64,000 nt of DNA from a virus (Duplodnaviria; Caudoviricetes), in the IMG/VR virus record IMGVR_UViG_3300008255_000098. One strand, given 5' to 3'. Below are positions 28,659-63,558 of the stretch, piece by piece. The translations under genes and the position numbers were made by a program. The notes under the pieces were generated by a model. The model made no database searches. It was given only the letters and a program-made list of their open reading frames with translations, and had not been told where the DNA came from. Numbering within the stretch: position 1 is the first letter of the stretch; the number at the start of each line of letters is the position of its first letter.

Positions 28659-30260
28659 ATGTTTATGGAAAAAAATAAAATCGAAATTTTAGTAGAAGAA
28701 GTCGTTGACGACCTATTAGCGAAAAAACTCGTAAAGAAGAAATCTAAACGTAAAAAAATCGATAAATTATCATATGAATACGTATATTATCTTAAAAGGA
28801 AAGACCCGGCTCTTTTTGAATTATTAGCGGCACAAGCGAGATTCATAATTGCTGCTGTTGAGAATGGCTACTCTCCAAAGGATAAAATTATATCACTTAA
28901 TAAATTCCTAAAAATGGATAAAAAGTTAGATCCAAGAGACAGTGCTGATACCCATGGGGTAAAGTTAGTTTTAGATTATCTTGTTAGACAGCAAAAGATT
29001 AAAGATCCTGGAGAATTTGCAGGTAAGACAAAACGTTGGTATCAGGCAGCACTCGATGCTGTTTTGAGAGCTACATATGAAAAAAAACCAATCAAGGTTT
29101 CCAAGGAACAAGTTACATATAATAAAAAAAAGTTAAATGAATCGAGTGCAGTTCATAAATCATTTTATTTGGATTTGCCAGACGATCTACTAAGGGTGTC
29201 AGACATTTTTAAAAGCCATGGATACCAACTGTTTGTTGTTGGTGGCGCTGTTAGAGATGCTCTTATAGGAAAAGCACCAAAAGACTATGACCTTGCTACA
29301 AATGCAAAACCAGATGAAATTTTACAAATGTTCAATGGGGCTCCTGGCTTCCGCACATTAGAAGTTGGAAAAGCTTTTGGAGTTATTAATGTTTATACAA
29401 AAGAAAATAATGAATATGAAATTGCCACTTTTAGACGAGATTTAAGTGCCGGTCGTCGCCCCGATGCCGTTGAATTTACGACAATTGAAAATGATGTACA
29501 GCGCAGAGACCTAAGTATAAATGCACTGTTTTATGATATTCAGAAACAAGAAATTGTAGATTTTGTTGGTGGAATTGAAGATCTTAAAAACGGAATTGTT
29601 AAATCTGTTGGAGACCCAAAAGAACGGTTTGCGGAAGACCGACTGAGAATATTACGTGCCCTTCGTTTTGCTGCTCGCATGGGAACAGAGTTAGACACAA
29701 ATACTAGAAATGCAATTCTTGAAGATAACTCTTTATCTGGAGTTTCTCCAGAGAGGATTAGAGATGAGTTTTTGAAAAGTATTAAAAGTGCCAAATCGGT
29801 TGTTTCCTTGATGAAACTTTATGATACATTTGATTTATGGCCACAGGTTTTTCCTAATTTAAGAATAAATAAAGATTATCCAGAAACAAAAAATATACCT
29901 GTGCTTTTAGCTTTATTGTTACGAGAAAACAATCCTAAAAATTTAGGTAAAAACTTAAATAAGTTAGTGTATAGTGTTGTTGAAACAAAACAAGTGGTAT
30001 TTTTAGTTATGTTTCAAGAAATATCGCTCACTAATGCTTATCAACTTAAAAAGTTATTTTCTTCTACAAGACTTACAAACTCAGACCTTCTGGAATTTGG
30101 GGAAGAAAATAAAAATATTGATATGAAATTAGTAAGTGCTTTTACAAAATATGATCTATCTGTCAGTGGACAAGATTTATTAGATTTAGGACTTAAAGGT
30201 AGAGAACTAGGCCAAGAACTAGAACGTCGTGAAAACTCTTTATTTATGGATTTGGTATGA
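28659..30260 (+). CDS. cca: Class II tRNA nucleotidyltransferase (CCA-adding / poly(A) polymerase family) with about 160-aa N-terminal extension
   Basis: VGGAVRD...KDYDLAT, EIATFR, DVQRRDLSINAL, EDRLRILRALRF, SPERIRDEF. Confidence 0.92.
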   Translation: MFMEKNKIEILVEEVVDDLLAKKLVKKKSKRKKIDKLSYEYVYYLKRKDPALFELLAAQARFIIAAVENGYSPKDKIISLNKFLKMDKKLDPRDSADTHGVKLVLDYLVRQQKIKDPGEFAGKTKRWYQAALDAVLRATYEKKPIKVSKEQVTYNKKKLNESSAVHKSFYLDLPDDLLRVSDIFKSHGYQLFVVGGAVRDALIGKAPKDYDLATNAKPDEILQMFNGAPGFRTLEVGKAFGVINVYTKENNEYEIATFRRDLSAGRRPDAVEFTTIENDVQRRDLSINALFYDIQKQEIVDFVGGIEDLKNGIVKSVGDPKERFAEDRLRILRALRFAARMGTELDTNTRNAILEDNSLSGVSPERIRDEFLKSIKSAKSVVSLMKLYDTFDLWPQVFPNLRINKDYPETKNIPVLLALLLRENNPKNLGKNLNKLVYSVVETKQVVFLVMFQEISLTNAYQLKKLFSSTRLTNSDLLEFGEENKNIDMKLVSAFTKYDLSVSGQDLLDLGLKGRELGQELERRENSLFMDLV

Positions 30261-36425: not shown

Positions 36426-36501
36426 GCCAACTAAGCTAATCTGGTGAAAGCACTCGGTTGAAGCCCGAGGTAGCCCGGATCAAAACCGGGAGTTGGTACC
36501 A
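36426..36501 (+). tRNA. tRNA-Phe(GAA)
   Basis: Cloverleaf; TT-GAA-GC loop; T-loop ATCAAAA; CCA. Confidence 0.9.
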
Positions 36502-40798: not shown

Positions 40799-40874
40799 GC
40801 CCAAGTACGCTAAAGGCAGTGCGGCTTTTCTCAAAAAAAAGTGGTTGTGAGTTCGACTCTCACCTTGGGTACCA
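40799..40874 (+). tRNA. tRNA-Leu(CAA) with short variable loop
   Basis: CTTTT/AAAAG stem, CT-CAA-AA loop, 5-nt variable region; CCA. Confidence 0.82.
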
Positions 40875-45244: not shown

Positions 45245-46843
45245 ATGTGCGGAATTTTTGCCTATAAAGGAAGTTTGATTCCCTTTGAGGAACTAGAAAA
45301 GCAATTTATGAAATTGCAACATAGAGGACCAGACAACATGCAAATAGATGTTGACCCTCAAAAAAAAGTATTTCTAGGTTTTCATAGATTATCAATAATG
45401 GATTTAACTTCCAAAGGAAACCAACCATTTGTTGATGGTACAATACGTTTGTTGTGTAACGGAGAAATCTATAACCACGAGAGTCTAAAACAGGAAATAA
45501 ATTACAAATGTCACTCTGCAAGTGACTGTGAAATTTTACTACCACTTATTGAAAAATTTGGGTTGCTTGAAACATCTAAAAAATTAGATGCAGAGTTTGC
45601 ACTAATATGGTATGACCATAAAACACAAAAAATGATGGCTGCACGTGACCCAATTGGCATTCGTCCTTTATTTTGGGGGAAGACAACTTCTGGAGAAATA
45701 GCCTTTGCGTCCGAGGTCAAAGCATTAGTGGACATTTGTGAGTTTGTTGAAGCATTTCCACCGGGATTTATTTGGGATGGCAATGAATTAATTGAATTTA
45801 GTGATGCAGGCTGTCAGCCTAAAAAAACTCTTTCCGGGTCAGAGCCCATGAAAGAAAAAGAAGTCCTGTACGGAATATCCTATAAGCTTACAGAGGGTGT
45901 TAGAAAGAGGATGGGGGCTGACGCTCCGATTGGATTTTTGTTGAGCGGAGGTCTTGACAGTAGTCTAATTTGTGCTTTGGCAGCTAAAATCTCTGACAAG
46001 CCTATAAAGACGTTTTCTGTGGGGTCAAATATTGACGCAATTGATAATAAATATGCAGAATTAGTTGCAAAACATATTGGCGCTGAACATACTACAGTAT
46101 TGTTTACACAACAAGATGCAACAAGTAGACTAGATGAGCTAATTCGAAAATTAGAGACGTGGGATATTACGACTATCCGTGCTTCTGTTGGAATGGATTT
46201 TGTATGCGAGTGGATACATAAAAATACAAATATTAAAGTGTTGATGACAGGAGAAGTTAGTGATGAATTATTTGGATATAAATATACAGATTATGCCCCG
46301 AATGCAACTGAGTTTCAAAATGAAGCAATTAAAAGAATGAGAGAATTATACATTTATGACGTACTTCGAGCGGACAGGTGTATTTCTGGGCATTCGTTAG
46401 AAAGCAGAGTTCCTTTTGGAGATTTAAATTTTGTAAGCCATGTGATGAATATTCCAGCTGAAATGAAAATGAACACACACGGGCAAGGAAAATATTTATT
46501 ACGCAAAGCCTTTTCCAATATTAACCTTTTGCCGGAAGAAATCCTTTATAGAGAAAAGGCAGCGTTTTCAGATGCAGTTGGACACTCAATTGTTGATGGA
46601 ATTAAGTTTTATGCTGAAACCAACATAAGTGATAAAGAGTTATTAGATGCAAAACAAAAGTACAGTTATGGAACTCCTCTGACAAAGGAAGCTTTATTGT
46701 ATCGTAATATTTTTGAAAGACACTATCCTGGCAGAAGTGAGTTAATTAAAGATTTTTGGTTACCAAATAAAAATTGGGAAAATTGTAATGTTACTGATCC
46801 AAGTGCTCGTGTGTTGCCTAATTACGGAGACAGCGGCAAATAA
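45245..46843 (+). CDS. asnB: Asparagine synthetase B (glutamine-hydrolysing)
   Basis: MCGI N-terminal nucleophile, HRGPD, GFHRLSI, NGEIYNH, RDPIGIRPL, LSGGLDSS, TGEVSDELFG, ESRVPF. Confidence 0.96.
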   Translation: MCGIFAYKGSLIPFEELEKQFMKLQHRGPDNMQIDVDPQKKVFLGFHRLSIMDLTSKGNQPFVDGTIRLLCNGEIYNHESLKQEINYKCHSASDCEILLPLIEKFGLLETSKKLDAEFALIWYDHKTQKMMAARDPIGIRPLFWGKTTSGEIAFASEVKALVDICEFVEAFPPGFIWDGNELIEFSDAGCQPKKTLSGSEPMKEKEVLYGISYKLTEGVRKRMGADAPIGFLLSGGLDSSLICALAAKISDKPIKTFSVGSNIDAIDNKYAELVAKHIGAEHTTVLFTQQDATSRLDELIRKLETWDITTIRASVGMDFVCEWIHKNTNIKVLMTGEVSDELFGYKYTDYAPNATEFQNEAIKRMRELYIYDVLRADRCISGHSLESRVPFGDLNFVSHVMNIPAEMKMNTHGQGKYLLRKAFSNINLLPEEILYREKAAFSDAVGHSIVDGIKFYAETNISDKELLDAKQKYSYGTPLTKEALLYRNIFERHYPGRSELIKDFWLPNKNWENCNVTDPSARVLPNYGDSGK

Positions 46844-48448: not shown

Positions 48449-48892
48449 ATGAATTTTGAAACTCCGAAATTAGCTGTTGATTGTATTGTAATAACCCCGA
48501 AGGGAGTCGTTCTTATAGAACGAAAGAATCCGCCTCATGGGTATGCAATTCCTGGCGGGTTTGTTGATGTTGGAGAAACTTTAGAAAATGCAGCTCGACG
48601 TGAAATGAAAGAAGAATTAAACCTGGATGTAAAAATCCTTGGTAGATTAGGCATTTATGATGAGCCCATTCGTGATCCAAGGCAACATGTAATTTCTGTT
48701 GTTTATGTCGGGAAAAGCGAGTTATCTCCTGTGGCTGGCGATGATGCAAAAGAAGCATTTGAAATTCCTTTGAAAATTGTTGATGGAGAGCCAGTTTTCG
48801 ATCGTAAATTTGCGTTTGATCACGAAACCATTCTTAGAGACTTTATTAAATCGGAATTTCTACAAGTTTATAGATTATATTACGGTAAATAA
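48449..48892 (+). CDS. NUDIX hydrolase (ADP-ribose pyrophosphatase-like)
   Basis: AIPGGFVDVGETLENAARREMKEELNL, DPRQHVIS, AGDDA. Confidence 0.9.
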   Translation: MNFETPKLAVDCIVITPKGVVLIERKNPPHGYAIPGGFVDVGETLENAARREMKEELNLDVKILGRLGIYDEPIRDPRQHVISVVYVGKSELSPVAGDDAKEAFEIPLKIVDGEPVFDRKFAFDHETILRDFIKSEFLQVYRLYYGK

Positions 48893-48893
48893 T

Positions 48894-50111
48894 ATGGAAA
48901 AAACATATACACGAAGAGGATGGATACGTTCTATCCGAAAGAGTAAGAAACTCAGTTTTATCAGTGCCACTGATGGACAGGATGAGTTTCAGCTTACTAT
49001 TAAACATTTTGGAAAAGAAGACGATAGTAAAGTTTTTGGAGACTTTAAAGTAGGAGCTTCATTTGAAGCGTTTGGTAAAGATAGCTATACCCCACGTGGA
49101 GATTACGAATTTTCTGTAAAGGAAATTAAAATTGTTGGCGAAGCGGCTGACGATTTTGCTATTCAACCTAAAAAACATAGTGACGATTTTTTGCGAACTA
49201 TTCCTGAAGAACGTGGCAGAACTGCTTTATATCAGGGAGTTTGGAGAATTAGGCATAAGGTTTCACAAGAGTTACATCGGTTTTTTACGAGCAAAGATTT
49301 TATACAATTCTGGACACCTTGCATTACATCAGCGGATTGTGAGGGTGCAGGAGAAACATTTTCAGTAGAAACTGACTGGCTTAAAAGCCATCTAACGGTT
49401 TCTGGTCAACTGCATGGTGAAGTTGGTATGATGTCCTGTGGGAAGATTTATACTTTTGGGCCGTGTTTTCGTGCGGAGAAATCAACTGGTCGTCGTCATC
49501 TTGCAGAATTTTGGATGTTAGAACCAGAAATGGCTTTTTATTCTCTAAAAGAAACAATGGACCTTGTAGAAGACTTACTCAGCCATGTTTTTAGAGTCGC
49601 ATCAAATGAATATGAAAAAGAATTTGAGAAAATGCGGGTTTCAATGGACCATATTACTGAAATGATATCTTTGCAAAAAGCGTGGCTCCGCATGACATAT
49701 GAAGAAGTTTGTGATAAATACGGGCTTGTTTGGGGCACGGATATTAATGCTGAGTTGGAGCGCAAGCTAACAGAAGATTTAAAATCACCAGTATTTATCA
49801 CTCATTGGCCAAGGGAAATGAAACCTTTTTACATGAAAAATGACGGAATCGTAGCAGAGTGTTTTGACCTCATTTTCCCAGAGGTCGGAGAACTCATAGG
49901 GGGCTCTGTACGTGAAGAAAATTTTGAGAAACTTAAAAAATCAGTAGTTGATTCTGGAATAGATGCACAATCAATGGATTGGTATCTTAAAACTAGAAAA
50001 CACGGAACAGTGCCACATGCAGGTTTTGGATTGGGTTTTGAGAGACTTATAATGTATATTTGTAAGTTAGAAAAGATTCAAGATACGATTCCATTTCCAG
50101 TTAGTTATTAG
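48894..50111 (+). CDS. asnS: Asparaginyl-tRNA synthetase
   Basis: DCEGAGETF, LTVSGQL, YTFGPCFRAEKS, RHLAEFWMLEPEMAF, ELIGGSVRE, PHAGFGLGFERL; start set at ATG 48894. Confidence 0.93.
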   Translation: MEKTYTRRGWIRSIRKSKKLSFISATDGQDEFQLTIKHFGKEDDSKVFGDFKVGASFEAFGKDSYTPRGDYEFSVKEIKIVGEAADDFAIQPKKHSDDFLRTIPEERGRTALYQGVWRIRHKVSQELHRFFTSKDFIQFWTPCITSADCEGAGETFSVETDWLKSHLTVSGQLHGEVGMMSCGKIYTFGPCFRAEKSTGRRHLAEFWMLEPEMAFYSLKETMDLVEDLLSHVFRVASNEYEKEFEKMRVSMDHITEMISLQKAWLRMTYEEVCDKYGLVWGTDINAELERKLTEDLKSPVFITHWPREMKPFYMKNDGIVAECFDLIFPEVGELIGGSVREENFEKLKKSVVDSGIDAQSMDWYLKTRKHGTVPHAGFGLGFERLIMYICKLEKIQDTIPFPVSY

Positions 50112-50454: not shown

Positions 50455-51246
50455 ATGCAAACTTTTGATTTAATAAAAATGAAACAGTCGTGTGCTTTGG
50501 CTGCTGAGACGTTATTGTTTGTTGGAGATATTATCAACGAAGGGATGTCTACAGGGGATATAGATATTTTAGTGCATGAATTTATTCTTGGGGCATTTGC
50601 TTATCCCTCCCCACTTCACTATCAAGGGTTTCCAAGATCAATTTGTACAAGTAGAAATAATGTAATGTGCCATGGAATTCCAAATAAAAATGAAATATTG
50701 GAAAATGGCGATATAATCAACATAGATATAACTACATTTTTTCCAACCCAAGATGGTTTTCACGGAGACACTAGTGCTACATTTTATATTGGAACCCCTT
50801 CAGAGGAAGCACAGCGTATAACAAGAACTGCTCGTGAGTGTTTAGATTTAGGAATTGCAGTGGTGAAGCCAGGAGTTTATTTTGGAGACATAGGGGATAA
50901 AATTGTTTCGCATGCTTTACAAAATAAATGTTCTATAGCACCCGAGTTTGTTGGACACGGTATTGGTAAAGAATTCCACACTAACCCATATATTGACCAT
51001 TGTGGGAAAAAAAACACAGGAAAAATTATCGAGGAAGGAATGATTTTTACGATTGAGCCAATTTTAAATCTTGGTACTTCTGAACATATAATTTTAGAAG
51101 ATGGATGGACTGTAATAACAAAAGATGGTAGTTTAAGTGCGCAATTTGAACATACAATTTTAGTAGTCGAAAATGGTTGTGAAATCTTGACAGAAAGAAA
51201 TAGACCACTTAAAAACTCATTAGAAACTATTAGTAATAAAATTTAA
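50455..51246 (+). CDS. map: Methionine aminopeptidase type I
   Basis: CHGIP, NIDIT, HGDTSAT, FVGHGIG, FTIEPI, SAQFEHTI. Confidence 0.95.
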   Translation: MQTFDLIKMKQSCALAAETLLFVGDIINEGMSTGDIDILVHEFILGAFAYPSPLHYQGFPRSICTSRNNVMCHGIPNKNEILENGDIINIDITTFFPTQDGFHGDTSATFYIGTPSEEAQRITRTARECLDLGIAVVKPGVYFGDIGDKIVSHALQNKCSIAPEFVGHGIGKEFHTNPYIDHCGKKNTGKIIEEGMIFTIEPILNLGTSEHIILEDGWTVITKDGSLSAQFEHTILVVENGCEILTERNRPLKNSLETISNKI

Positions 51247-57451: not shown

Positions 57452-57712
57452 GTGGCGCAAAACAAATACACTTTAGGAAAAATGTTTCAGGTGTTATCAA
57501 CTACATCAGTAATCACCACAAATCCAAATTGTTCACAAAATCGAACAATAACACACGTTGACCACAAAAAAATAGCAGTTGGGGAGATTTTATTATTAAT
57601 AGATTATTTTGATCTAGGAATATCAGGAATTTGGGTGTGGCTTTATTATGATAGTGTGGTATGGCAAGTGATGGAAAAAAATAATTTTAAGAAATGTTGG
57701 AGGTTGTTATGA
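57452..57712 (+). CDS. Hypothetical protein (paralog family)
   Basis: IAVGEILLLI...LYYDSVVW. Confidence 0.5.
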   Translation: MAQNKYTLGKMFQVLSTTSVITTNPNCSQNRTITHVDHKKIAVGEILLLIDYFDLGISGIWVWLYYDSVVWQVMEKNNFKKCWRLL

Positions 57713-58515
57713 GGCCGGTAGTGTTGTTCAGAGCAGGTTTGGCAGAAGAAAAAGAAATGCAGGTTTGTGCAAAATATTTTCCTGTTATTACCCAACGAAG
57801 TCATGTTAAAAAAGATGATCTTATTATTCCTAGGTATTCAGCAATACCGTGGTACAAAGAGTTTGAAGAAGACGTAGTATATTCTGGCGGAAGGATAATC
57901 AACTCTTTTCGAGAGCACAACTATGTAGCGGATTTAAAAAATTGGTATTATCATCTTGAGGAATATACTCCAAGAACTTGGTTTTATTTGGATCAAATAC
58001 CCCAAGATGGTCCTTTTGTTTTGAAAGGACAAACAAGCTCTCTCAAACATAGTTGGAACACACACATGTTTGCTAAAAACAAACAAGAAGCAATTCAAGT
58101 ACATTCTAGATTATGTGAAGACAGTTATATTGGAACACAATTAATTTACGTGCGTCAGTTTGTTCCTTTGCGACGCCTTGCTGATGGTTTACAAGGTTTG
58201 CCTATATCTGAAGAATATAGATTTTTTGTACTCAATGGGGAAGTATTAAGTGGAGCATTTTATTGGTCTGAACATAGTGAGTATATTGAAGAACAAGGCA
58301 TAGATATTAGTTCAAACAATGTTCCAAAAGTCTTTTTAGATAAAATTATTTCTATTGTTAAGCCGCATATTCCATTTTTTGTAGTTGACATAGCACGAAC
58401 TGCAAGCGGGGAGTGGATAGTAATAGAATTAAATGACGCTCAAATGAGTGGGTTAAGCGATAATGATTCTGAAATATTGTATTCAAATATGAGAAAAGTG
58501 TTGTCTGAAAAGTAA
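57709..58515 (+). CDS. ATP-grasp domain protein (DUF4343/R2K-like)
   Basis: PFVLKG, EEYRFFV, FFVVDIA, WIVIELND; start set at ATG 57709 (GGAGG RBS). Confidence 0.8.
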   Translation: MRPVVLFRAGLAEEKEMQVCAKYFPVITQRSHVKKDDLIIPRYSAIPWYKEFEEDVVYSGGRIINSFREHNYVADLKNWYYHLEEYTPRTWFYLDQIPQDGPFVLKGQTSSLKHSWNTHMFAKNKQEAIQVHSRLCEDSYIGTQLIYVRQFVPLRRLADGLQGLPISEEYRFFVLNGEVLSGAFYWSEHSEYIEEQGIDISSNNVPKVFLDKIISIVKPHIPFFVVDIARTASGEWIVIELNDAQMSGLSDNDSEILYSNMRKVLSEK

Positions 58516-58718: not shown

Positions 58719-59081
58719 GGGGATAAATTGGATTCGACTTGGGAAACAACGGAACAATAACGTTGTAGTGGATGTTCACGCCCACTTAAATATCGTGAAC
58801 AAATATAAATGCAGATAATGCACCACTTGCTCTTGCTGCCTAAAAAACACTAGAGCCGTTGAACGGATAATGTGCTTCGATTACCGGGAAATGTCATTTT
58901 AGAGGCTAGACGAAATTACCATTGGATTGCTTTTGAGTAATTAGTTTAAATTAGTAAAAGTAAGAACCCGCTGTAGATGCTTGTAGCTTAGATGCGGAAA
59001 ATCTAAAATCAGGATAGACAACGTAAATGTTTTTCTAGAAGTTCTTGAGGACGAGGGCATCGAAGCCCTCTATCTCCACCA
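58719..59081 (+). ncRNA. ssrA: tmRNA (SsrA), tag peptide ADNAPLALAA
   Basis: 5' GGGGATAAATTGGATTCGAC pairs with 3' TATCTCC-A-CCA including G3-U70; tag ORF gca..gcc-taa at 58811-58843. Confidence 0.93.
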
Positions 59082-60327: not shown

Positions 60328-60573
60328 ATGGAATCTTCTGGATTGACAGTTAAAACATTAATTGGAAAGCTTAAAAAGCAATGGGCACCTGCATCTGCGA
60401 TTGTGGTAAATGATATAATCATTCTAAGCAGCGAAGAGTTCTGGGTGGTGTCAGAGGTAAGGAAAAAGTCGAATGGGTTCTACACCATCCTCAGCGAGCA
60501 GGGGGAGGGTTCTTTTGAGGTACCACCAGCAGAAATATTCCTTATTGTGAACAGGGGGTGTTATGGTAGCTAA
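60328..60573 (+). CDS. Hypothetical protein
   Basis: ORF track. Confidence 0.45.
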   Translation: MESSGLTVKTLIGKLKKQWAPASAIVVNDIIILSSEEFWVVSEVRKKSNGFYTILSEQGEGSFEVPPAEIFLIVNRGCYGS

Positions 60574-60979
60574 AAATAAAATAGAAAAGTGGAGAGCTTA
60601 TAGTGTTCCTTATCTAGAATCTGGAAGTGTTAATTGGAAAAGTGTTCCAGACGGAATAGAAAAAGTAAGATTTTGGGACTACGCCAGTAGAAGTTATATA
60701 AATGGAAAAATATTTTGGGTAGAAAATAAGCCATTTAAAACAGCTTTAAAGTTTGTTTCTTTGTACCACATGGCAAGAGAAAACACTCATTTTATTTTTG
60801 AGAATATTGAGACAGGCGGAAAGTATATTATGCGAAATACTGATTTTGAACATTGCCTCAAAAAAGGAGTATTTATTCATGGTGTTATTTTAGGGGAATG
60901 GAGATTTGAACGTTCTCACAATAGAATGTCAGTGGTTCCGATAGAATTTATTTCTTCTATTGAGCTTGAGAAAAAGTAA
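60563..60979 (+). CDS. Hypothetical protein
   Basis: ORF track. Confidence 0.55.
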   Translation: MVAKNKIEKWRAYSVPYLESGSVNWKSVPDGIEKVRFWDYASRSYINGKIFWVENKPFKTALKFVSLYHMARENTHFIFENIETGGKYIMRNTDFEHCLKKGVFIHGVILGEWRFERSHNRMSVVPIEFISSIELEKK

Positions 60980-61134
60980 TTTTTTTAAACATTGTAAAAA
61001 AAGTATGATAGGATATTGAAATGTCTAAAGAATTTTTGTAAGTTTTAAATCGTGGACCTCCTTTTGAACTCGGTAAAGTAATTTGTCGAAGTAGATTTGG
61101 TTTAAAAAATATAAAATATTAAAAGGAGTTAAAA

Positions 61135-61614
61135 ATGAATCCACAAAATAAAAAACAGTTATCGGCACTTAGAGGCGCAATCAAAGGATTGGCCTATTCT
61201 GGACAAGAAATTCGAACAAGAAATATTGCCACTAGTAAAGGTGAGCAAAAATATGAAGCATGGGCGCTAAAGCGTTCTATCGGACATGTAGCTAGATGTC
61301 ATTTATTGGCTTATGGTTTGTCAAGAGGACAAACACGAGAACAAGTAGAAAAGTCTGGCAAAAGAAAAAAGCTAATATATTTGGATAGCTATTTTACAGC
61401 TGACAGAACGTACATATATGGATTTAACGCAAAAAAATATGTACAAGATATTTTATACATATTGTCTGTATATAAAATTCTTCCATATGATTGTGACCAG
61501 CGGGCCATAGAAAAATGGCTTGCTGATGGAAATAAAAAGCTTATTTCTTTTGAAGACCGGGAAACCAGAAAGCTGTATAAACTCAAAGATGCTAGTATGT
61601 CATGGCTAAGATAA
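61135..61614 (+). CDS. Hypothetical phage protein
   Basis: ORF track; AGGAG RBS; ARCHLLAYGL motif. Confidence 0.6.
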   Translation: MNPQNKKQLSALRGAIKGLAYSGQEIRTRNIATSKGEQKYEAWALKRSIGHVARCHLLAYGLSRGQTREQVEKSGKRKKLIYLDSYFTADRTYIYGFNAKKYVQDILYILSVYKILPYDCDQRAIEKWLADGNKKLISFEDRETRKLYKLKDASMSWLR

Positions 61615-61952
61615 AAAAAATGTATGTTCTAGTAAGACAAGATTTAGGTGCGGGCTATCAAATTCCACAAGCAATTCATGCTAAAGATAAATTTAGTCAC
61701 GAACATGCCAAAATTGAACATTCGTGGTATGAAGAATCTAATACTATTGCAGTATTAGGTGTAGATAATGAAGAACATTTGTTAGGAATAACACAACACA
61801 TAAATGAGTTAGGACTGAAGTTTTCTTTATTTTTTGAGCCAGATATTCAAGAATATACTTCTGTTGCCATAGAACCTGGAGATAAAACATCCGAAATACT
61901 CAAAGTGCTCAAAAGAGCTTGCGGCGGAAAGAGAAAAAGAAATAGAAAATAG
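61602..61952 (+). CDS. Pth2-like peptidyl-tRNA hydrolase family protein
   Basis: MYVLVRQDL...QAIHA, SNTIAVL, FFEPDI..YTSVAIEP. Confidence 0.65.
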   Translation: MAKIKKMYVLVRQDLGAGYQIPQAIHAKDKFSHEHAKIEHSWYEESNTIAVLGVDNEEHLLGITQHINELGLKFSLFFEPDIQEYTSVAIEPGDKTSEILKVLKRACGGKRKRNRK

Positions 61953-61957
61953 ACTCT

Positions 61958-62137
61958 ATATCATAATATTGACGCAATACGGTAGAAGACGTATGTGGTT
62001 GCAAGTTTTGGATCAGTTTGTGTCTCACACAATCCAAGGAGTTTGATCCCTTAATCCTTTTAATTAGGATTTGATGTTGAACGACCAATCAGCCTAAGTG
62101 TACATAGGAGCGTAGTAACGCCGCAATATTTTGATGT
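61958..62137 (+). ncRNA. Candidate multi-hairpin structured RNA upstream of the suppressor tRNA
   Basis: About 15-bp closing stem plus seven internal hairpins (see findings). Confidence 0.55.
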
Positions 62138-62142
62138 AGTAT

Positions 62143-62220
62143 GGGGCCTTGGCAGAAAACTGGAAATGCGGTTGACTTTAAATCGACTTTATGCGGGTTC
62201 AATCCCCGCAGGCCCTACCA
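62143..62220 (+). tRNA. tRNA with TTA anticodon (ochre suppressor candidate)
   Basis: GGGGCCT/AGGCCCT acceptor, GTTGA-CT-TTA-AA-TCGAC anticodon arm, GCGGG-TTCAATC-CCCGC T-arm, CCA. Confidence 0.88.
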
Positions 62221-62264
62221 AAAACTTGTTTAAAAATAAAATTTAGAATGTTATTGTAAGTTAT

Positions 62265-62735
62265 ATGAGCGAAATAAATTATATTTTAGGAAATGCTGTT
62301 GAGCCTATTGGAGTTGATAATAAAATTATTGTTCATGTGTGTAATGATATTGGCGCATGGGGCGCAGGGTTTGTACTAGCCGTTTCAAAAAAATGGCCGC
62401 ACATTAAAAAAGAATATCTTTCATTGTTTAAAGATTATAAAAAACCTATTTTAGGAAGTGTACAATTCGTTGTGGCCGAAAAAAAAATAGTTATTGCTAA
62501 TCTTATAGGACAAGAGGGGATTGGAAGGAAAAATTCACCTATCCGCTATGTTGCTATTGAAAGAGGCTTAGAACAAATAAAAGAACTAGCTGAAAAGTAT
62601 AATACATCTATTCATATGCCTAGAATTGGTTGCGGACTCGCTGGCGGAAAATGGGAAGAAATAGAAGCAATAATTGAACGAGTTTTTGAAAAATCAAAAG
62701 TTAAAATTATTGTATATGATTTAAGCACGGAATAA
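62265..62735 (+). CDS. Macrodomain protein (DarG/TARG1-like ADP-ribosylhydrolase)
   Basis: IVHVCNDIGAWGAGFV, IHMPRIGCGLAGGKW. Confidence 0.88.
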   Translation: MSEINYILGNAVEPIGVDNKIIVHVCNDIGAWGAGFVLAVSKKWPHIKKEYLSLFKDYKKPILGSVQFVVAEKKIVIANLIGQEGIGRKNSPIRYVAIERGLEQIKELAEKYNTSIHMPRIGCGLAGGKWEEIEAIIERVFEKSKVKIIVYDLSTE

Positions 62736-62898
62736 TAATGATATATTAAGGCCCGAAAACAAAAGAAGAAAAAGATTTTAATCACTGCTTTGCTCCTAGA
62801 ATATTTGAGAATTTCACTATTCTGACTATCGCCATTGGAAACAAAAATTAGTTATTGGGATTTCTAGAAATTCCAGAGAAGAGAAGGAAAAAATAAAC

Positions 62899-63054
62899 TT
62901 TGACGGCTACACTACGGTTAGTTGCAACATGAATTTTGGTACCAAAGATTCACGAAGTACAGACGCAGGGGTACCTAAGAACCTGATAACAGTATCTACA
63001 AGGTCAGGTGAGGATGCCGATACTAAGTAGGTTAAAATCCTATTAGCCGTCGAA
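62899..63054 (+). ncRNA. Candidate structured RNA with a kissing-loop pseudoknot
   Basis: 11-bp closing stem; ACCTGA/TCAGGT and AGGAT/ATCCT hairpins whose loops carry AGTATC and GATACT. Confidence 0.55.
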
Positions 63055-63084: not shown

Positions 63085-63103
63085 AAAAGCCGCTAAAGCG
63101 GCT
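63085..63103 (-). terminator. Intrinsic terminator for the 63136-63558 gene
   Basis: AGCCGC/GCGGCT hairpin followed by TTTT on the minus strand. Confidence 0.55.
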
Positions 63104-63135
63104 CAGATGGAAGAGATAGAAAGGGATAAATTCTA

Positions 63136-63558
63136 TTATATAGCTGGTTTTCGGTCAACAATGTGCCAAGAGTAGCTGCCAGAGTTATCAGCCGGAACAC
63201 TCAAAAGTTCAAGATGCCCGTATGCTCCACTCATATTTGTTGTCGCAGCGCCATCAATGTTTAGGGCTCCTGCGGATCCTGTTACTAAAACAACATTATT
63301 TCCCAAGCCATCGAGCATAATTAAAACTCTTTCGCCTTCCGTGTCTGAAGAAACAGCAGGTAAACTAGCAGTGACTCCAGCCGCAGCTCTAGTAATCAAT
63401 AGATTAAGTCCGCCGTATATAGATACAACGCCAGATGAGTTTACGAGTTTGGTAATGTCCTCTCGTTGTGAGCTAACAGTTATTTGAAGTTGGTCTTGTG
63501 AACCAGTAACAGTTTCAGTTACGACGCCCTTTGGGCCAATTGTAGTTTTTAATGCCAT
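63136..63558 (-). CDS. Hypothetical beta-rich protein, possible virion component
   Basis: G/S/T/V-rich composition; ATACTTA motif upstream. Confidence 0.6.
   Translation of the reverse strand: MALKTTIGPKGVVTETVTGSQDQLQITVSSQREDITKLVNSSGVVSIYGGLNLLITRAAAGVTASLPAVSSDTEGERVLIMLDGLGNNVVLVTGSAGALNIDGAATTNMSGAYGHLELLSVPADNSGSYSWHIVDRKPAI

Follow-up and report, generated by a model that had tools for sequence, protein, structure and literature searches.

The 64,000-nt stretch of DNA analysed here (the window), which comes from an uncultured huge groundwater phage, carries at positions 62899-63054 a 156-nt element that, judged by comparison of homologous sequences, is a member of a previously uncatalogued structured phage RNA family with a well-supported fold. 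The element is very probably a real structured RNA of the + strand. Its fold, a four-way junction with a pseudoknot and a palindromic loop that never varies, has unusually good support for so few sequences. Huge phages have large sets of translation genes and, to our knowledge, almost nothing is known of their structured RNAs other than tRNAs. The 156-nt RNA lies amid the phage's tRNA, tmRNA, suppressor-tRNA, and peptidyl-tRNA-hydrolase genes, and it is small enough for in vitro transcription, dimerisation assays, and structure determination. The features of the RNA and of its surroundings are collected in Table 1.

Table 1. Positions of the RNA, its structural parts, and genes of the window
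Feature	Positions	Strand	Remarks
156-nt RNA element	62899-63054	+	between the Macro gene and the convergent 140-aa gene
P1 5' strand	62899-62909	+	TTTGACGGCTA (RNA UUUGACGGCUA); pairs with 63044-63054
J1/2	62910-62922	+	CACUACGGUUAGU; 12 of 13 positions invariant in four close homologues (alignment A3)
P2	62923-62959	+	long imperfect hairpin; stem sequence varies freely, pairs covary
L2	62938-62944	+	apical loop GGUACCA; GGUACC hexamer invariant in 5 of 5 homologues
J2/3	62960-62969	+	CAGACGCAGG; CAGACGYAG conserved, sole variation C/U at one position (A3)
P3 5' strand	62970-62976	+	GGUACCU; pairs with 63011-63018 around bulged A63014
P4 5' strand	62981-62986	+	ACCUGA (ACCTGA); pairs with 63004-63009
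Pseudoknot 5' strand	62991-62996	+	AGUAUC, in the P4 loop; pairs with 63019-63024
P4 3' strand	63004-63009	+	UCAGGU (TCAGGT); pairs with 62981-62986
P3 3' strand	63011-63018	+	AGGAUGCC, A63014 bulged; covariation count
Pseudoknot 3' strand	63019-63024	+	GAUACU, contiguous with the P3 3' strand; pairs with 62991-62996
P5	63027-63043	+	hairpin GUAGG-UUAAAAU-CCUAU; adjoins the P1 3' strand without a spacer
P1 3' strand	63044-63054	+	TAGCCGTCGAA (RNA UAGCCGUCGAA); pairs with 62899-62909
Macro-domain gene	62265-62735	+	upstream neighbour of the RNA
Convergent 140-aa gene	63136-63558	-	no Pfam match; downstream neighbour of the RNA
Intrinsic terminator of the 140-aa gene	63087-63104	-	not claimed as part of the RNA
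Suppressor tRNA, UUA anticodon	62143-62220		one of 31 tRNAs
tmRNA	58719-59081		Rfam match
PolyA_pol/CCA-adding-type nucleotidyltransferase	28659-30260
Asparagine synthase	45245-46843
Class II (D/K/N) aminoacyl-tRNA synthetase	48777-50111
Methionine-aminopeptidase-type M24 peptidase	50455-51246
R2K ATP-grasp protein	57694-58515

Homologues of the RNA have been traced via the flanking proteins in a protein collection and from there back to contigs. Several contigs (L002-L006) belong to the same phage strain and carry an identical RNA. Three clearly diverged copies (L008/L010, L081, and L080, the last being the same as L099) and the divergent copy of L011 occupy the syntenic position. A covariance model, R1, was built from four sequences, which it scores at 150-168 bits, and it detects the L011 copy as a fifth member with 42 bits and an E value of about 1e-8. 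The L011 copy keeps P1-P4 and the GGUACC loop, while its pseudoknot and junction motifs are changed or gone. Between phages the RNA is 62-75% identical and the adjacent 140-aa protein just 47-56%. Since the identity of the RNA is above that of the neighbouring protein, the RNA is under purifying selection.

The structure was examined in a four-sequence MAFFT alignment (A3), in which P1-P5 and the pseudoknot were written down and the pairs counted. Across the four diverged sequences, standard pairs are found in 91.8% of 171 alignment cells, and two-sided changes that keep the pairing occur in 18 of the 43 pairs. Sliding the partners by 1-3 columns as a control leaves 1-4 two-sided pairs and 32-42% pairing, and none of 500 shuffles reaches the observed pairing and covariation. 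Compensatory pairs are present in every helix, with three in P1, four at the base of P2, two in P3, three in P4, one in P5, and two in the pseudoknot. With the L011 copy added, 19 of the 37 nested pairs are two-sided in a five-sequence model alignment, which is itself fitted to R1. P1, the base of P2, P3, P4, and P5 are also given independently by RNAalifold.

P1, an 11-bp helix of ten Watson-Crick pairs and one U.G, closes a four-way junction with P2, the P3-P4 arm, and P5. It has three two-sided changes (GGCUA/UAGCC to GGUCA/UGACC, and U.G to A-U) with 97.7% of its cells paired. Each of the four basal pairs of P2 has a two-sided change, and the pairing register in the middle of the hairpin differs among the homologues. 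The P3 pairs of L080 change from G-C to C-G and from C-G to U-A, with further compensations in L011, while the three two-sided changes of P4 convert CCUGA/UCAGG to CCAG/CUGG. The pseudoknot pairs in 95.8% of cells and changes in L080 from A-U to U-A at one end and from A-U to G-C centrally. P5 is paired in 100% of cells, with U-A replaced by C-G in L080 and G.U by A-U in L081. As no spacer follows P3, coaxial stacking of P3 on the pseudoknot can be proposed, with P4 likely branching off.

A preliminary description of this DNA, made from the single sequence, had listed an 11-bp closing stem, a hairpin with a perfect 12-bp palindrome, further hairpins, and a kissing-loop interaction, and all the sequence features that it listed are present at the coordinates given. 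The closing stem and the ACCTGA/TCAGGT hairpin are borne out as P1 and P4, with three compensatory pairs each, and the palindrome (TTTGGTACCAAA) lies at 62935-62946 within the hairpin 62930-62952. The proposed AGGAT/ATCCT helix and the alternative ACCTA/TAGGT pairing exist in this sequence, but both break without compensation in the relatives and show no covariation. The conserved pairings at those sites are instead GGUACCU/AGGAUGCC (P3) and GUAGG/CCUAU (P5), and the L080 change that breaks AGGAT/ATCCT is compensated in P3, where A121 covaries with U80. As for the kissing loops, the AGUAUC/GAUACU helix itself is real and has two compensatory pairs, but it is better described as a pseudoknot than as a loop-loop kiss. 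Its 3' partner lies on a strand continuous with P3 and the AGGAT/ATCCT hairpin is not conserved; the contact therefore runs from a loop to a junction. The same description had regarded an absence of expression and of covariation in the kissing helix as telling against its proposal, and two of the 18 covarying pairs are located there. A rival partner for the P4 loop is available, since in each of the four close homologues the GUAUC of L4 could also pair with the GGUAC of L2. Of the two partners, GAUAC is favoured over L2 GGUAC by the compensatory change seen in L080.

The single sequence makes a weaker case. The minimum-free-energy fold is -41.9 kcal/mol, both strands alike, with z = -2.3 on the + strand and -2.5 on the - strand, and 4 of 200 shuffles fold equally well. 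The fold from one sequence is thus only mildly above chance, and it is the covariation among the homologues that places the element beyond chance. The strand has been read from the same alignment, in which 157 of 171 cells pair when read as the + strand and 148 as the - strand. G.U cells number 13 on the + strand and A.C cells 4. This wobble asymmetry, together with the position at the 3' end of + strand genes, points to the + strand, which we assign with moderate confidence. Where the RNA starts and stops, its strand, and its stability are inferred from sequence. No reading frame is open across the element in all five homologues, in agreement with the earlier view that it holds no credible ORF.

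The junction strands J1/2 and J2/3 offer several candidate pairings. The ACUA/UAGU mini-hairpin, which resembles a D arm, and CUACG/CGYAG are invariant with one break each, and GUUAG/CAGAC, an extension of P2 proposed by RNAalifold, is invariant. The complement of J2/3, CCTRCGTCTG, matches nine sites in the window at one mismatch, against 1.4 expected from shuffles. A pairing target of the junction strands elsewhere in the window was looked for, and the idea has been dropped.

No known family accounts for the element. The 4227 models of Rfam 15, which include riboswitches, ribozymes, Y RNA-like, ROOL, GOLLD, OLE, 6S, SRP, and tmRNA families, give nothing that overlaps 62899-63054 at gathering thresholds or at E values up to 10. 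There is also no Rfam match at the homologous positions in L008, L081, L080, and L011. The comparison with Rfam had been proposed in the preliminary description, and its outcome in the window and the homologue loci agrees with the statement made there that the sequence fits no riboswitch or ribozyme consensus. The suggestion of a novel ncRNA is likewise upheld by this result and by a fold that is kept through compensatory changes.

The family seen here numbers five sequences, all from a narrow clade of uncultured huge phages, and a second copy of the RNA in the window is not detected by R1. A blastn search with three versions of the RNA against the GenBank phages (50,697 records) gives no match, pattern scans of IMG/VR give chance matches only, and a scan of JGI metagenome contigs recovers only the contig of L080. 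A scan of representative genomes yields 53 chance matches, the best of which scores 17.7 bits with R1. P0008, reached via a neighbour protein, is bacterial. These wider searches gave no further members, and the family as seen is small and confined to a single clade. Some relatives are without the RNA; L078, L109-L111, and L181-L184 have a gap of 53-60 nt at the site and no RNA, and L112-L114 have gaps of about 85 nt in which R1 finds nothing.

The RNA lies in a part of the window that is rich in translation functions. The large terminase of the phage is T4-type and 38% identical to the terminase of Flavobacterium phages. ARAGORN finds 31 tRNA genes in the window, and the translation-related genes are densely clustered around the tRNA array. 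VanW and PTH2-like proteins are also encoded, and a DNA methyltransferase gene is found near the RNA. The best matches of the Macro gene beyond three phage relatives are proteins 50-56% identical to it, and most of the named ones belong to Flavobacteriia or to further groups of Bacteroidota. Taken with the Flavobacterium-phage match of the terminase, they suggest that the host is one of the Bacteroidota or that the gene was acquired from such a bacterium. The element has a GC content of 0.42. The earlier remark that it is GC-richer than its flanks holds for the upstream side (about 0.31-0.33) but not for the downstream gene (0.44). On its 3' side, the P1 3' strand is followed by the U-rich AUUUUUGUGUUU, which starts with AUUUUU.

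The gene upstream of the RNA differs among the phages. In L008/L010 and L081 the RNA is 3' of a Macro gene and a 101-aa ORF, while in L080 it is directly 3' of a homologue (L080:975-1256, - strand) of the window ORF 60563-60979, without an intervening PTH2, suppressor-tRNA, or Macro block. In the window this block (61025-62735) comprises a 159-aa ORF, the PTH2-like gene, a structured RNA, the suppressor tRNA, and the Macro gene, and the L080 arrangement identifies it as an insertion/deletion difference between related phages. A functional tie of the RNA to the Macro gene was considered and dropped, because the L080-type phage is without that whole block. An ORF of 91-101 aa with a hydrophobic centre lies between the Macro gene and the RNA in L008 (1221-1526), L081 (520-825), and L011 (867-1142). 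In the window the corresponding stretch, 62736-62898, is a 163-nt non-coding spacer in which a remnant of the 101-aa ORF is not detectable. On the downstream side, the terminator hairpin of the convergent 140-aa gene is found at the same place in L008, L081, L080, L079, and L108. This terminator consists of GCCGC...GCGGC followed by a U-run on the - strand, with loops that vary among the relatives, and a conserved AAGCACCAAAAGCCGC-like motif precedes the hairpin. Since the upstream gene varies and the constant convergent gene also occurs without the RNA, the RNA is an independent module and not the regulator of any particular gene.

The stop codon of the upstream ORF precedes P1 by 2 nt in L081, 8 nt in L008, and 19 nt in L080. 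With stops so close to P1, co-transcription with the upstream genes is probable and a separate promoter unlikely. We propose that the RNA would be the final part of the rightward operon transcript, and that this tail may then be released as a stable RNA. This RNA would act in trans via its self-complementary GGUACC loop. L2 could form a symmetric kissing dimer, as the loops of OLE, GOLLD, and the HIV-1 DIS do, or dock on a fixed partner, and the pseudoknotted core and invariant junction strands could present a surface for a bound partner. As a whole, a gene for a + strand ncRNA of about 156 nt that acts in trans via L2 is the explanation that we lean towards. For the parts taken separately, the chances that the RNA is stable and trans-acting seem evenly balanced, and self-dimerisation through the loop is put forward more tentatively.

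The loop is central to this proposal. GGUACC is identical in all five copies, including that of L011, even though the P2 stem varies freely, which suggests self-dimerisation or a fixed partner. An apical loop with a strictly retained 6-nt palindrome is characteristic of symmetric kissing contacts. Because GGUACC never varies, covariation speaks neither for nor against an intermolecular contact, and this invariance fits equally well with a protein or other partner or with an alternative intramolecular pairing. A cofold calculation puts the dimer about 13 kcal/mol below two monomers, a gain that follows by construction for any palindromic hairpin loop. As the palindrome reaches into the stem both in the window and in L011, an extended duplex could also form there. 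Avoidance of GGTACC as a restriction site has been rejected, since the window contains 8 sites against 5.5 expected and the hexamer is neither avoided nor enriched. The tRNA-Phe and tRNA-Leu(CAA) genes of the window (36426-36501 and 40799-40874) end in ...UUGGUACCA with CCA encoded, and the final heptamer equals the P2 loop GGUACCA. The tRNA-Phe with its trailer also has the 11-mer UUGGUACCAAA in common with 62936-62946. The heptamer may be a hint that the 3' end of a tRNA is mimicked; as its flanks are not conserved in the homologues, the likeness is probably a coincidence.

Several other explanations of the element can be weighed against a trans-acting RNA. The RNA could be a cis-acting 3'-UTR element of the rightward operon with no function in trans, serving in exonuclease protection, in defining a processing site, or in insulation from the convergent gene. 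Such a role agrees with the 2-19 nt between the upstream stop and P1 in L081, L008, and L080, with the constant position immediately ahead of the terminator that belongs to the convergent 140-aa gene, and with the U-rich run after P1. Simple hairpins suffice for 3' protection, however, and invariant junction strands of 13 and 9 nt, a pseudoknot, and a palindromic loop exceed that need. The upstream gene also differs (the 101-aa ORF or the homologue of ORF 60563-60979), and close relatives do with a 53-60-nt gap and no RNA; we therefore regard a purely cis-acting role as unlikely. The preliminary description had called the element riboswitch-like or catalytic, and variable helices around invariant junction strands and a pseudoknot are indeed typical of ligand-binding aptamers and small self-cleaving ribozymes. 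The genomic position does not support a riboswitch: the element lies 3' of a stop codon, and the next gene is on the opposite strand and converges on it, leaving no + strand gene downstream to regulate. No riboswitch or ribozyme model matches up to an E value of 10, and the L011 copy keeps P1-P4 and the loop but is without the junction motifs and the pseudoknot. A new class of aptamer or self-cleaving ribozyme is thus improbable as the explanation of this element. A small chance may be given to a broader possibility, that of a minimal self-assembling RNA, with a kissing dimer and possibly AGUAUC/GAUACU assemblies in trans, or of a new aptamer or ribozyme class. The covariation of AGUAUC/GAUACU does not assign this pairing to cis or to trans.

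A tRNA-shaped mimic that engages tRNA-handling enzymes, analogous to T4 RNA C, has also been considered. In this layout P1 is the acceptor, ACUA-CGGU-UAGU the D arm, P2, with its 7-nt loop, the anticodon arm, P3/P4 the variable arm, and P5 the T arm, and the five helices do follow the order of a class-II tRNA with P5 adjoining the P1 3' strand. The phage has 31 tRNAs, a tmRNA, a PTH2-like gene, a CCA-adding-type enzyme, and an aminoacyl-tRNA synthetase, the 139-nt tRNA-like RNA C from the T4 tRNA region provides a precedent, and the L2 heptamer equals the 3' end of tRNA-Phe and tRNA-Leu(CAA). On the other hand, neither ARAGORN nor the tRNA-clan models of Rfam, even up to an E value of 10, find a tRNA at 62899-63054. 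P1 has 11 bp where a tRNA acceptor has 7, and there is no 3' CCA. The loop of P5 is variable and lacks the T-loop consensus, with GUAA or UAAA tetraloops possible in some copies, the D-like hairpin is broken once and does not covary, and the connectors far exceed those of a tRNA in length. R1 moreover has no match to T4 RNA C or D, and we consider a tRNA mimic quite improbable. Least probable is that the element works as DNA and not as RNA, as a miniature transposon, an IS200/IS605-type single-stranded DNA fold, or a protein-binding palindrome. P1 does resemble 11-bp terminal inverted repeats, the palindrome GGTACC is well known as a DNA site, and only some of the relatives carry the element. 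Yet the 64 kb contain a single copy, the other collections searched contain none, the position is syntenic across phages whose neighbouring proteins are 47-56% identical, and GGTACC is neither enriched nor avoided. Compensatory changes in five helices and a pseudoknot, with G.U preferred over A.C, likewise speak for RNA. No transposase is found next to the element, and the single copy and the synteny also fit neither a MITE, nor an IS200-IS605 end, nor a TnpB guide scaffold. P1 could pass as the a1/a2 of a retron ncRNA, but there is no reverse transcriptase among the neighbours.

Among known phage RNAs, the trans-acting RNA proposed here can be compared with T4 RNAs C and D (rnaC/rnaD, 'species 1 and 2'). 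These are also folded orphan phage RNAs of about 120-140 nt that are co-transcribed with other genes in a tRNA-rich region, and both phages have a T4-type terminase. T4 RNA C is 139 nt long, weakly tRNA-like, and has the canonical T arm GGGUUCGAAUCCC; the 156-nt RNA has neither a T arm of this kind nor such likeness to a tRNA, and its pseudoknot and palindromic loop set it apart from RNAs C and D. Homology has been rejected, as R1 and blastn found nothing, and R1 has no match up to an E value of 10 in T4 66000-76000, the locus of RNAs C and D. The T4 rnaC sequence (L115:4909-5047, - strand) has a strong fold (z = -4.6), with the T arm beside an acceptor-like closing stem, and gives a weak match to the tRNA-Sec model (17.5 bits, E 0.76). 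In the Rfam scan made here, neither RNA C nor RNA D matches a family above the gathering threshold.

Pairing of a hairpin loop with a strand that runs on from the enclosing helix is seen in the cores of several riboswitches and ribozymes. The 156-nt RNA has the same layout between the P4 loop and the P3 strand, and covariation supports it. It differs from these pseudoknotted three-helix cores in that no known family model matches and in that its core is embedded in a larger four-way junction. The HIV-1 DIS has a palindromic loop that forms a kissing dimer, and it likewise shows a 6-nt self-complementary sequence in a hairpin loop. The two are unrelated in origin and context. In the phage RNA the loop has 7 nt in two homologues and is larger in others, and a dimer would be hypothetical.

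ROOL and GOLLD, which are encoded by phages or prophages, occur in the vicinity of tRNA islands (PMC12286853). The homo-oligomers of OLE, GOLLD, and ROOL are held together in part by symmetric kissing loops whose palindromes are conserved or covarying (PMC12286853). The 156-nt RNA resembles ROOL and GOLLD in its location in a tRNA/translation island and in its invariant palindromic apical loop. ROOL, GOLLD, and OLE have roughly 580-800 nt or more against 156 nt here, and Rfam gives no match to any of them. With one obvious self-complementary site, at most a dimer would be expected, unless the pseudoknot forms in trans. The general importance of the RNA may turn out to be modest, that of an accessory RNA restricted to one clade. 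Should it self-assemble or bind a translation factor, it would offer a tractable entry into orphan phage RNAs such as T4 RNA C/D, ROOL, and GOLLD, and if self-assembly holds true, the tRNA and translation island of a huge phage would encode, in 156 nt, a functional counterpart to the cages of ROOL and GOLLD.
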